Notes: generated by a model not told the origin, from the sequence alone. Counted from the stretch's first letter, positions 40,141 through 42,591 are shown. The stretch is DNA of 64,000 nt from Escherichia coli O127:H6 str. E2348/69 (GCF_000026545.1 NC_011601.1), one strand, 5' to 3'. Translations and numbers: made by a program.

Positions 40141-40531
40141 ATGGTGTTGTTTTATCGGGCACACTGGCGCGACTATAAAAACGATCAAGTGAGGATCATG
40201 ATGAATCTGACGACTCTGACCCACCGCGATGCGTTGTGTCTGAATGCGCGCTTTACCAGCCGTGAAGAGGCCATCCACGCGTTGACTCAACGTCTTGCTG
40301 CTCTGGGGAAAATTTCCAGTACTGAGCAATTTCTGAAAGAAGTGTATTGCCGTGAAAGCCTTGGCCCGACCGCCTTAGGTGAAGGGCTGGCTGTGCCGCA
40401 TGGCAAAACTGCTGCGGTAAAAGAAGCGGCGTTTGCGGTCGCCACACTCAGCGAGCCGCTTCAGTGGGAAGGCGTGGATGGCCCGGAAGCGGTTGATTTA
40501 GTGGTGTTGCTGGCGATTCCCCCCAATGAAG
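40141..40531 (+). pseudogene. mngA: mngA 5' fragment (PTS EIIA domain of the mannosylglycerate permease), truncated by the IS50-like element
   Basis: About 131 codons of the PTS fructose-type EIIA domain (…GLAVPHGKTAA… phospho-His region) run directly into the IS left end at 40532, where the frame continues into IS sequence and stops. Confidence 0.8.
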
Positions 40532-42081
40532 CTGTCTCTTATACACAAATCCCCACCCGGGGATTTGTGATGTCTGTCAGTCTGCTTTAGGGGGACTCTT
40601 TCCATCCGGTAGTTTCCTTCCTCCCCGGCAGCGATTTTTTGAACTTTTTCCTCACCCGTTGATCTTCTCTTATATTTCATTTTCTTCGGGTCTGTTATGG
40701 TACTTTCTGATTGTTATTCATGGGCTAACGAGCAGTTTGGACATGCCCGTCTCGGTGATCCGCGTCGTACACGACGCCTTGTGTCACTGGCCTCTTCTCT
40801 CGCTCAGCATGCAGGTCTTTCTATTGTGAAATCATCCCAGTCCACTGCTCAGGTTGAAGGTGCGTACCGCCTGATACGTAACCCGTCTGTGTCCCCGCAA
40901 GCCATTGCCGAAGCCGGATTTACCGCCACTGTAAGGGCATGTGAGGCTCATCCGCTGCTCCTCGCGCTGGAAGACACCACCACCATTAACTTCAGTCACA
41001 GTACGGCATCTGATGACCTGGGGAATACCACCACTAACCCGAAGACGCGCGGGCTGCTGGCTCACTCTGTCCTGATGTACGCCCCCGACAGCGCCCTGCC
41101 AGTCGGTCTTATCGAACAGCAGCGCTGGAGTCGTGCCACGGACACCTACGGTGTTAAGCACCAGCGAAAAGAACGTCCCTATGAAGAAAAAGAAAGTTAC
41201 CGCTGGCAGCAGGCTTCGGAGCGCATGGCCGAACGGCTGGGGGAGATACAGAAACGGGTAATCACTGTCTGTGACCGGGAAGCGGATATCTGGCATTACC
41301 TGCATTATAAAGTCAGCCACGGGCAGCGCTTCGTGGTGCGTGCAGCACAGAATCGCCGGCTGGAAGAAGCACCCGGCAAGCTCTTCGAACTGCCGGAAGT
41401 CCTGGCAACCGCGGGAAGCCACACGCTGAATGTGATGCAAAAAGGCGGGCGGGCAGCCCGCCAGGCCCGGATGTTCATCAGTTACAGCGAAGTCAGCATA
41501 AAAAATCCCGACAACAGCGGCCAGGCGCTCCCGCTCACGTATGTCTGTTGCCGGGAGCAGGCAGAGGACGGCGCCTGCTGGCATCTGCTGACGTCAGAAA
41601 AAGTGGCGAGTGCCGCCGATGCGCGACGTATCGTCAGCCATTACGAGCGACGCTGGCTGATAGAGGAATACCACAAGGCGTGGAAAAGTGGTGGTACATG
41701 TGTGGAATCGCTGCGAATGCAGACCCGGGATAACCTCGAGCGCATGGTGGTTATCAAGGCGTTTATCGCGGTGCGGGTGCTGGGCCTGCGGCAGGGCGGT
41801 ATCAGTGAAGAAACACAAAATGACAGCTGTGAGAAAATACTGACGCCGACAGAGTGGAAACTGCTGTGGGTTAAGCTGGAAGGAAAACCGCTTCCGTCAC
41901 AGATGCCGACACTGAAATGGGCCTGTCTGAAACTGGCGAAACTGGGGCGATGGCATGACAGCAAACGCACCGGTCGCCCCGGTTGGGTAGTCATGTGGGA
42001 TGGCTGGTTCAGACTTCAGGATATGGTTGAGGGTTACCTGGTGATGAAGTCTCTTGATCAGGAGATCTGATCAAGAGACAG
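40532..42081 (+). mobile_element. IS50-like insertion sequence (IS4 family), about 1.55 kb, with asymmetric OE-like and IE-like termini
   Basis: Left terminus CTGTCTCTTATACACAAAT (IS50 outside-end-like); right terminus on the complementary strand CTGTCTCTTGATCAGATCT (IS50 inside-end-like, two GATC sites); one 457-aa DDE transposase ORF fills the element; the 9 bp flanking the two ends differ (ccaatgaag vs cccgggcga), so there is no target-site duplication. Confidence 0.85.
40697..42070 (+). CDS. IS4-family (IS50/Tn5-like) DDE transposase
   Basis: 457-aa ORF; clear similarity to Tn5 transposase as recalled (LGDPRRT…, …LEDTT…, …VCDREADI…, …RWLIEEYHKAWKSG…), with all three DDE catalytic-residue contexts present. 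Confidence 0.85.
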   Translation: MVLSDCYSWANEQFGHARLGDPRRTRRLVSLASSLAQHAGLSIVKSSQSTAQVEGAYRLIRNPSVSPQAIAEAGFTATVRACEAHPLLLALEDTTTINFSHSTASDDLGNTTTNPKTRGLLAHSVLMYAPDSALPVGLIEQQRWSRATDTYGVKHQRKERPYEEKESYRWQQASERMAERLGEIQKRVITVCDREADIWHYLHYKVSHGQRFVVRAAQNRRLEEAPGKLFELPEVLATAGSHTLNVMQKGGRAARQARMFISYSEVSIKNPDNSGQALPLTYVCCREQAEDGACWHLLTSEKVASAADARRIVSHYERRWLIEEYHKAWKSGGTCVESLRMQTRDNLERMVVIKAFIAVRVLGLRQGGISEETQNDSCEKILTPTEWKLLWVKLEGKPLPSQMPTLKWACLKLAKLGRWHDSKRTGRPGWVVMWDGWFRLQDMVEGYLVMKSLDQEI

Positions 42082-42142
42082 CCCGGGCGAAGAGGGCTGC
42101 TTTGGTCCACGTCGATCCAATATCGACAGAGACGATTTGCAT
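42082..42142 (-). pseudogene. 20-codon 5' stub of a glmL/mutL-like gene (glutamate mutase reactivase component), cut by the IS right end
   Basis: Minus-strand ATG overlapping the glmS-like stop (TGATG) opens [20 protein letters not shown], an ASKHA-type N-terminal phosphate-1 motif, and runs directly into the IS end. Confidence 0.55.
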
Positions 42143-42591
42143 CAGATTGCCTCTTCAAGAATACGAGTATCAACGTCATGACGTTGGTTGATATCGTGGG
42201 CCATCAGCTGACAAACATCTTCTAAGTCATGACTTGGGGCAAAGACGCGATCAAATCCCATCTCTTTGAATTTGGTTTCCACGTCAGCGAAGTCATGTTT
42301 TCCGACCACCAGGTTACCGCCCACATAGAGCAGGATGTCCCCCAGTCCACGCTCGATGCAGCGTTCGCGCATGCCCAGACAGTCGATATCGCCATGCCCA
42401 TAGATAGAGGAGACGACAATCGCGTCAGCGCCAGTTTCAATGGCCGCATCAATATATTCGTCCTGGCTGACCATTACGCCCAGATTAATGACTCTGAAGC
42501 CATGGTTGCTAAAAACGCGGTCCAGAACTTTATTGCCTACTGCATGGCAGTCCGCGCCAATAACGCCAATCACAAGTGTTGCTTTCTTCAT
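42142..42591 (-). CDS. Methylaspartate (glutamate) mutase S-subunit-like cobalamin-binding protein
   Basis: 149 aa from [21 protein letters not shown]… with an AAGGA ribosome-binding site 7 nt upstream; carries the DxHxxG B12-binding motif (DCHAVG) and is closely similar to the clostridial GlmS/MutS S chain as I recall it. Confidence 0.75.

Follow-up and report, generated by a model that had tools for sequence, protein, structure and literature searches.

ISEc13 of Escherichia coli E2348/69: a Tn5-related element without a counterpart of the Tn5 inhibitor start

Introduction

The transposase frame of Tn5 also gives rise to an inhibitor, Inh, an N-terminally truncated protein whose translation starts at Met56. 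Control of the Tn5 type relies on a separate promoter, P2, and its transcript T2, which does not contain the transposase AUG; the truncated product, which does not bind DNA, poisons the transposase by heterodimerisation. Upon insertion, Tn5 generates fixed 9-bp duplications at a weak consensus. IS10/Tn10, a cut-and-paste element of the IS4 family, carries a Dam-regulated transposase promoter and a Dam-regulated inner end, and is not known to make an inhibitor protein. Instead, IS10 uses an antisense RNA, RNA-OUT.

IS4-family elements encode a DDE transposase with the signature Y-(2)-R-(3)-E-(6)-K, and those of the IS50 subgroup share the end consensus CW------Y---CA-A--W- (PMC2266710). In IS50 itself, Dam down-regulates P1, the promoter of the transposase, via GATC sites contained in it, but not the promoter of the inhibitor (PMC4265352). 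As for target choice, IS231A and elements of the IS4/IS4Sa subgroups (e.g., ISRm22, found in REP sequences) insert into symmetric, structured targets (PMC2266710; PMC1525189).

Here we analysed a 64,000-nucleotide stretch of E. coli O127:H6 strain E2348/69 DNA (hereafter, the window) that harbors a complete copy of ISEc13, an already catalogued insertion sequence (ISfinder name; IS4 family, IS50 subgroup) and a distant relative of Tn5's IS50, which in the literature searched received passing mentions only. Our focus was the start of translation from which an Inh-type inhibitor would be made.

Results and Discussion

An intact ISEc13 copy between mngA and glmS

By megablast, the window DNA was 100% identical to the E2348/69 chromosome records, which at the same position carry the RefSeq label 'IS4-like element ISEc13 family transposase' (WP_000244358.1). 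The element occupies positions 40532-42081 of the plus strand, starting with CTGTCTCTTATACACAAAT at 40532 and running up to AGATCTGATCAAGAGACAG at 42081. Its 1550 bp, within the IS50-subgroup range of 1350-1550 bp, represent the complete ISEc13; the same length and identical ends were observed in the ISEc13 copies at four further E. coli loci, and the whole window contains just two occurrences of the end motifs. Both 19-bp ends match every specified position of the IS50-subgroup consensus. For comparison with IS50, we took a complete IS50L that retains its outside end (L003), leaving out a record in which the outside end is lost (L001). The left end resembles the IS50 outside end (OE) and the right one is identical to its inside end (IE), including both Dam sites (GATC at 42064-67 and 42069-72; Table 1). 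The transposase stop codon, TGA (42068-70), lies inside the right end, and the final transposase codons together with the IE-like end build a perfect palindrome. Since these ends are nearly those of Tn5, tools based on Tn5 transposase might also act on the ISEc13 ends present in strains such as E2348/69.

The protein encoded by the element aligned with the Tn5 Tnp chains in PDB over nearly its whole length (phmmer, E = 6e-84), and shared 39% whole-length identity with wild-type IS50 Tnp (BLASTP, E = 3e-90), placing the two in the same fold family. Pfam recognized the N-terminal DNA-binding domain (Tnp_DNA_bind, PF14706, 70.1 bits with a cut-off of 24) and DDE_Tnp_1, and the NCBIfam IS4 transposase model scored 514 bits. 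The Tn5 dimerisation domain (PF02281) scored 24.1 bits over residues 377-452, slightly under its cut-off of 26.7, and HMMER aligned the C-terminal dimerisation region with that of Tn5. The catalytic residues D93, D193 and E323 aligned with Tn5 D97, D188 and E326, and the YREK residues Y316, R319, E323 and K330 with Tn5 Y319, R322, E326 and K333, presenting the single-ORF DDE transposase with YREK that characterizes the IS4 family. By homology to Tn5, this transposase would bind the 19-bp end on either side and mobilize the element in cut-and-paste fashion. The initial annotation, which had described the ORF as IS50/Tn5-transposase-like and the GATC sites as kept in an IE-like end, was thereby borne out on both points.

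Table 1. Features of the ISEc13 copy and its flanks (window positions)
Feature	Position	Strand	Basis or remark
Left flank, CCCC-ccaatgaag, a different half-site	40519..40531	+	in truncated mngA
Left 19-bp end, CTGTCTCTTATACACAAAT, OE-like	40532..40550	+	17/19 identical to IS50 OE CTGACTCTTATACACAAGT (read in L003)
Perfect 11-bp hairpin, CACAAATCCCC-accc-GGGGATTTGTG, overlapping the left end	40544..40569	+	inverted repeat I16
Structured part of the leader with T6 at its end, similar to an inward-facing terminator	40582..40640	+	fold
Promoter-like TTGAAC-N16-GATCTT (TTGAAC 40639-44, GATCTT 40661-66)	40639..40666	+	leader alignment
Transposase gene, 457 aa	40697..42070	+	first-start ORF
GTG, Val44, with SD-like gcAGGtctttctattGTG; weak candidate for a truncated product	40826..40828	+	dG -3.7 kcal/mol
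CAG, Gln52, partner of Tn5 Met56 (Inh start); no initiation codon	40850..40852	+	HMMER, BLASTP, MAFFT
GTT, Val53, codon chosen in the initial annotation; partner of Tn5 Gln57	40853..40855	+	BLASTP, MAFFT
Perfect 13-bp palindrome, GTCTCTTGATCAG-gagat-CTGATCAAGAGAC	42049..42079	+	inverted repeat I5
Right 19-bp end, equal to the IS50 inside end CTGTCTCTTGATCAGATCT	42063..42081	-	19/19 identical
Right target half-site, cccgggcga-AGAGGG	42082..42096	+	first 20 codons of glmL

The copy is flanked by glmS and by a truncated mngA that carries the annotation of a partial pseudogene. An intact glmL locus (L126) reads CCCCCT-cccgggcga-AGAGGG, matching the target pattern of the clade, and the right half of this site directly follows the element. 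As the left flank is a different half-site, this copy has no target-site duplication (ccaatgaag versus cccgggcga), of the 8-9 bp that characterize the IS50 subgroup; in all other respects, it is identical to the named element. The simplest reading would be recombination between an ISEc13 copy in mngA and another in glmL, with loss of mngB, the remainder of mngA and the bulk of the methylaspartate cluster.

A copy without a target-site duplication at a deletion junction could be seen as a dead relic, rendering the question of its regulation moot, and the wider record offers some material for this view: ISEc13-like copies are mostly degraded, both in metagenomes and in E. coli genomes, a full-length ORF was found in ~9 of 63 metagenome-derived elements, and just 871 of the 3206 genomes with a match have one that spans 80% or more of the query. 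However, the ORF examined here is uninterrupted, and both ends and the DDE/YREK residues are intact. Moreover, its protein (WP_000244358.1) has identical copies in other strains and on plasmid pMAR2, and the E2348/69 assemblies contain 27-30 places matching ISEc13, their number varying between isolates. We regard it as very unlikely that this copy is dead. ISEc13 has spread to about 30 places in E2348/69, the prototype strain of EPEC.

The Inh start codon and its ribosome-binding site have no counterpart in ISEc13

To align the ISEc13 transposase with that of Tn5, we employed HMMER with the PDB chains, BLASTP with wild-type Tn5 Tnp, and MAFFT with 224 relatives; the wild-type Tn5 Tnp sequence was verified over its 245 N-terminal residues by a 100% match in more than 200 plasmid records. 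All three alignments placed SSQ-STAQVEGAYR of ISEc13 against SSEGSEAMQEGAYR of Tn5, and the crystallised Inh chain (1b7e), whose residue 3 corresponds to ISEc13 residue 54, gave the same register. The conserved Ala55 and the EGAYR block fix this register without a gap, such that Met56 of Tn5 faces Gln52 of ISEc13. The alignment to the solved Tn5 structures settles this correspondence.

The initial annotation had assigned the Inh-equivalent position to a GTT valine codon. This assignment was one codon off, as it is the CAG of Gln52 that aligns with Met56, yet its observation that no start codon is present there was correct. Since neither CAG52 nor GTT53 can initiate translation, the conclusion drawn from it holds, and formal alignment to Tn5 Tnp revealed no in-frame start codon at the Inh position. 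Its estimate that the N-terminus is about three residues shorter than that of Tn5 agrees with BLASTP, which pairs residue 3 of ISEc13 with residue 6 of Tn5; a further one-residue deletion, at Tn5 Gly52, lies ahead of EGAYR.

We next considered the ribosome-binding site. The Inh ATG of IS50 is preceded by cagAGGGtagtgaagccATG, whose duplex with the 3' end of 16S rRNA (-8.1 kcal/mol, computed, like all SD energies given here, with spacing not enforced) is the strongest within the first 140 codons, and whose GAGGG is formed by the codons GAG-GGT of Glu51-Gly52. At this position, ISEc13 reads TCC CAG TCC ACT GCT, with a one-codon deletion and no GAGGG. Thus, with Gln48 and a deletion in place of Tn5 Glu51-Gly52, the Inh ribosome-binding site is missing along with the ATG, and ISEc13, unlike IS50/Tn5, has no Inh-type start.

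Met56 is rare among relatives of both elements

To place this absence in context, we gathered 120 clusters of ISEc13-related proteins (49-100% identity) and another 120 of Tn5-related ones, of which 115 full-length ISEc13-clade clusters and 109 Tn5-clade clusters entered the column counts. At the Met56 column, the ISEc13 clade presented D (56 clusters), E (43), S (7), Q (6) and A, G and C (one each), with Met in 0 of 115. Even in the Tn5 clade, Met56 was present in only 11 of the 109 clusters, the remainder carrying L, A, K and other residues; of these 11 clusters, eight share 78% or more identity with Tn5, and the other three ~60%. Met56 relatives with DNA keep an SD, as seen in an Aeromonas element (GAGGGC, -7.1) and in cluster P0168 (GAAGGA, -5.7). 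ORF calls of Inh length are frequent in the IS50 clade (P0125, with 612 members, P0126-28 and P0130), while the ISEc13 clade yielded one (P0029).

Given these counts (0/115 and 11/109), Inh is the exception and its absence the rule. The combination of Met56 and GAGGG looks confined to IS50 and a few relatives, which would make Inh a speciality of the IS50 lineage rather than something that ISEc13 lost. Judged by the aligned relatives, the lack of an Inh start in ISEc13 is ordinary, as nearly every one of them is likewise without it. Since Inh appears special to IS50 and its nearest relatives, what is concluded on autoregulation in Tn5 should not be carried over to ISEc13.

These same alignments bear on the possibility that the earlier register was right after all, i.e., that Val53 corresponds to the Inh methionine and that ISEc13 lost an ancestral start that its relatives keep just before EGAYR. 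Met is found at the Val53 column in 28 of the 115 ISEc13-clade clusters (…SPADMEGAYR…), and a single change, GTT to GTG or GTT to ATG, would create a start at this codon. However, the column as a whole is merely hydrophobic (I 54, V 29, M 28), the 17 nt upstream contain no SD in four of four Met-bearing relatives with DNA (dG +1.2 to +1.9 kcal/mol), and Ala55 and EGAYR anchor Met56 to Gln52. We consider this scenario very improbable, and retain the Gln52 register. The Met preceding EGAYR in V. fluvialis, V. owensii, Flocculibacter and Xenorhabdus was itself examined as an Inh start and dismissed, being just a hydrophobic residue with no preceding SD.

A weak in-frame GTG is the only nearby alternative start

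An inhibitor could also be translated from a different internal codon. In-frame ATG, GTG or TTG codons within codons 1-140 of ISEc13 comprise GTG29, GTG44, GTG65 and ATG127, with SD duplexes of +0.4, -3.7, +0.5 and -1.5 kcal/mol, respectively. GTG44 is the sole canonical start nearby that is in frame and has any SD-like sequence, and this sequence is weak in comparison to that of Inh (-3.7 versus -8.1 kcal/mol). A product initiated at GTG44 would be without residues 1-43, including the LGDPRRT DNA-binding motif, and would keep the catalytic core and the C-terminal dimerisation region.

Several observations speak for such an Inh-like inhibitor. GTG44 is preceded by AGG at a distance of 11-13 nt, and its SD score equals that of the annotated transposase start (-3.7 kcal/mol). 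Moreover, GTG is kept at the Val44 codon in ISEc13, P0002, P0018, L089, ISPlu9, ISPpr3 and P0111, and is found in seven of nine relatives with Val at codon 44, though these lineages are not independent. In the V. owensii element, a GTG lies one codon earlier, behind AGGAG (dG -6.9), and one database ORF call, in cluster P0029, begins exactly at GTG44. On the other hand, the SD is weak and about 10 nt away, and its AGG derives from a conserved Gly codon. GTG is also the commonest Val codon: with ~5 independent lineages sampled, about four of five have it at codon 44 (P about 0.05), and two relatives have GTA or GTT instead. The consensus scan found no internal promoter for a GTG44 product, and gene callers chose the full-length start in 114 of the 115 ISEc13-clade clusters. 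The conservation of GTG at Val44 is thus a hint, not evidence, and although a low-level truncated product from GTG44 is possible, we find it unlikely that ISEc13 makes an Inh-like inhibitor in this way. Of the other codons inspected, ATG60 was rejected as a start: many relatives carry it, as does an ISEc13 variant with 98% identity (L008), but the window codon is ATA (Ile), and GAAGG is 13 nt away.

Our preferred reading is that an intact ISEc13, having neither the Inh AUG nor its SD, in all likelihood produces full-length transposase only, the norm of the IS50 subgroup; that no truncated product arises is what we infer from these features. The initial annotation had stated that, if no internal start is used, the element would have no Inh-type autoregulation. 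As far as can be read from the DNA, this statement is supported, since both the ATG and the SD are absent and the sigma-70 consensus scan detected no promoter within the gene.

Putative Dam-related control features shared with IS50, and a longer leader

We then characterized the remaining features by which ISEc13 might be controlled. The sigma-70 consensus scan of 40400-42200 returned 0 sites, missing the P1-like site described below as well, and weighs neither for nor against a P2-like promoter; the promoter assignments in ISEc13 are therefore made solely by positional homology. In an alignment of the leaders of ISEc13, IS50 and three relatives (A1), GAAC and GATC blocks formed invariant columns, and the arrangement xxGAAC-N16-GATC recurred in 11 of 13 elements of the IS50 group, among them IS50 itself, its GATC lying 34-40 nt ahead of the ATG. 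This shared geometry suggests that TTGAAC-N16-GATCTT of ISEc13 is a Dam-sensitive transposase promoter, equivalent to P1 of IS50.

Control of ISEc13 would combine several features that the whole group shares: a weak transposase start site; a putative promoter with GATC in its -10 region, which would be Dam-sensitive like IS50 P1; the two GATC sites of the IE-identical right end; and a structured, terminator-like leader. ISEc13 thus probably keeps a P1-type promoter and an inside end that are both Dam-sensitive, without the inhibitor.

The leader that precedes the transposase gene is long and structured. From the left end to the ATG, it measures 165 nt in ISEc13 compared to 92 nt in IS50 and 92-109 nt in 12 relatives, and the terminator-like segment belongs to the ~60 nt of extra leader missing in these relatives, which instead have a simple hairpin and a T-run directly after the left end. 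The RNA fold of 40532-40700 has a dG of -45.1 (z = -3.06), and the 11-bp hairpin that overlaps the left end is present in the minimum-free-energy structure. This structured leader would plausibly block read-through from outside. When both strands of ISEc13 were searched with Rfam (E <= 1), no RNA family was found, nor any sign of an IS10-like antisense RNA; this differs from IS10 with its RNA-OUT, an element whose sequence kinship to ISEc13 is also much more distant.

Insertion sites of the ISEc13 clade

Beyond the missing Inh start, the behaviour of the clade at its target sites would be the better lead. A tentative idea, which we find possible but more doubtful than not, is that the ISEc13 clade, having no trans-inhibitor, limits host damage by letting structure guide its insertion: the target would be the apex of a terminator-like or palindromic hairpin, and the stagger, centred on the dyad, would vary between 8 and 13 bp. 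Less likely than this is the evolution of a truncated inhibitor of the clade's own from GTG44, a semi-conserved codon. Hairpin-apex insertion sites and duplications of 8-13 bp would set the clade apart from Tn5, and bear on how Tn5-family transposases capture target DNA. IS231A, ISRm22 and similar elements are alike in using structured targets, but differ in subgroup, target sequence and duplication length. In the literature searched, which extended neither to the ISfinder entry nor to some key papers, we found no description of hairpin targeting by IS50-subgroup transposases, and no report of a target choice comparable to that of IS231A or ISRm22 for elements of this subgroup.

Because megablast matches extended 15-17 bp past the right end, insertion sites could be compared. 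The sample was assembled from the E. coli matches and from metagenome sequences retrieved with the 24-nt right end; the exact ISEc13 protein, sought in contigs, was found on two short contigs only. It included 28 distinct complete insertions, from E. coli, Salmonella, Serratia, Photorhabdus (ISPlu9), Photobacterium (ISPpr3), Vibrio, Xenorhabdus and Flocculibacter.

Among 51 unique flanks, positions 1-3 outward from either end were C-rich, positions 7-9 were G-rich, and positions 10-13 were purines with 0% C (GRGG). Duplications were observed in 17 of the 28 insertions, with lengths of 8 bp (five insertions), 9 bp (eight), 11 bp (one), 12 bp (two) and 13 bp (one). Other ISEc13 copies (L005, L006, L008, L015 and L027) have duplications of 8 or 9 bp, and those of 11-13 bp also occur in more distant members of the clade. 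Reconstruction of the empty sites yielded strong hairpins (dG -10 to -21 kcal/mol) in ~15 of the 17 cases, the loop lying at the exact centre of the duplication. In several of these sites, the hairpin is preceded by an A-run and followed by a T-run, as in bidirectional intrinsic terminators, and copies without a duplication still have a half-site on each side.

Ends and leader of ISEc13

The transposases of ISEc13 and IS50 are only 39% identical, yet the two elements have near-identical ends, with 19 of 19 positions shared with the IS50 inside end (IE) and 17 of 19 with the outside end (OE). The left end of ISEc13, which like IE has T at position 4, also matches 17 of the 19 positions of the engineered hyperactive 'mosaic end'. 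It is conceivable that Tn5 transposase tools would cross-recognise ISEc13 ends. At the right end, a perfect 13-bp inverted repeat yields a third GATC (42056), as well as a partial copy of the end that points inward.

Upstream of the transposase gene, a promoter-like motif, xxGAAC-N16-GATC, is kept in 11 of the 13 IS50-group elements examined, including IS50, its GATC lying 34-40 nt 5' of the transposase ATG. This conservation points to Dam regulation of the promoter as an ancestral trait of the IS50 group. The ISEc13 leader is ~60 nt longer than those of all 12 relatives examined (165 nt from left end to ATG, vs 92-109 nt), in which a simple hairpin and a T-run immediately follow the left end.

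Features of the ISEc13 locus and loci compared (L, loci; L003, complete IS50L with outside end)
Feature	Window position	Strand	Details or loci compared
mngA remnant	40201-40533		
Target half-sites / insertions	42082-42096, 40519-40531		L005-L008, L015, L027, L089, L093, L108-L111, L117-L123
Element ends	40532-40550, 42063-42081		L003 1409-1427
ISEc13 leader	40544-40640		Perfect 11-bp hairpin, then extra structured segment, then T6
Promoter-like motif	40639-40666		Leaders of L003, L109, L110, L113, L117, L120-L124
Perfect 13-bp inverted repeat	42049-42079		GTCTCTTGATCAG gagat CTGATCAAGAGAC; last transposase codons and IE-like end
glmL, first 20 codons	42082-42142	minus	

The region equivalent to the Tn5 inhibitor start and its footprint in databases

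A 98%-identical ISEc13 variant (WP_001357015.1, locus L008) and many 70-77% relatives encode Met60 (…YRLMRN…, ATG), with GAAGG 13 nt 5' of this ATG (dG -6.2). In the window copy, the codon at this position is ATA (Ile; 40874-40876). The NCBIfam model NF033590 matches residues 55-447 of the ISEc13 ORF, thus beginning at residue 55, the N-terminus equivalent to that of the Tn5 inhibitor (Inh), and for IS50-clade elements a 421-aa ORF of Inh length is very often what automated annotation predicts in place of the full transposase (protein clusters P0125-P0131). The DNA-binding domain is therefore under-represented in databases for the IS50 group.

Insertion targets

Insertions of ISEc13, and of the other IS50-subgroup elements in its clade, lie at the tip of short palindromes or of hairpins that resemble terminators. 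The E. coli targets follow the pattern CCYCY-[duplication]-RGRGG, while those in Vibrio, Photobacterium and Xenorhabdus are laid out as A-run/stem/loop/stem/T-run. C is absent (0%) at positions 10-13 counted outward from either end (51 unique flanks). Whereas Tn5 has a target duplication fixed at 9 bp and a weak target consensus, duplications in the ISEc13 clade are dyad-centred and vary from 8 to 13 bp at these hairpin apices.

Distribution of copies and the mngA-glmL junction

Of 5426 complete E. coli genomes searched, 3206 contain ISEc13-like DNA, but in only 871 does any one place span 80% or more of the query. Among 63 metagenome copies, ~9 have a full-length ORF and the majority are disrupted; E2348/69 assemblies hold 27-30 matching places. 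Overall, in these counts and in loci L011-L106, ISEc13-like copies are old and mostly decayed, with a recent expansion in the E2348/69 lineage.

No target-site duplication flanks the window copy, which connects a truncated mngA with a truncated glmL. Compared with other E. coli (intact locus L126), this locus lacks mngB, the remainder of mngA and the greater part of the methylaspartate mutase/ammonia-lyase cluster, which were probably deleted when two ISEc13 copies recombined.
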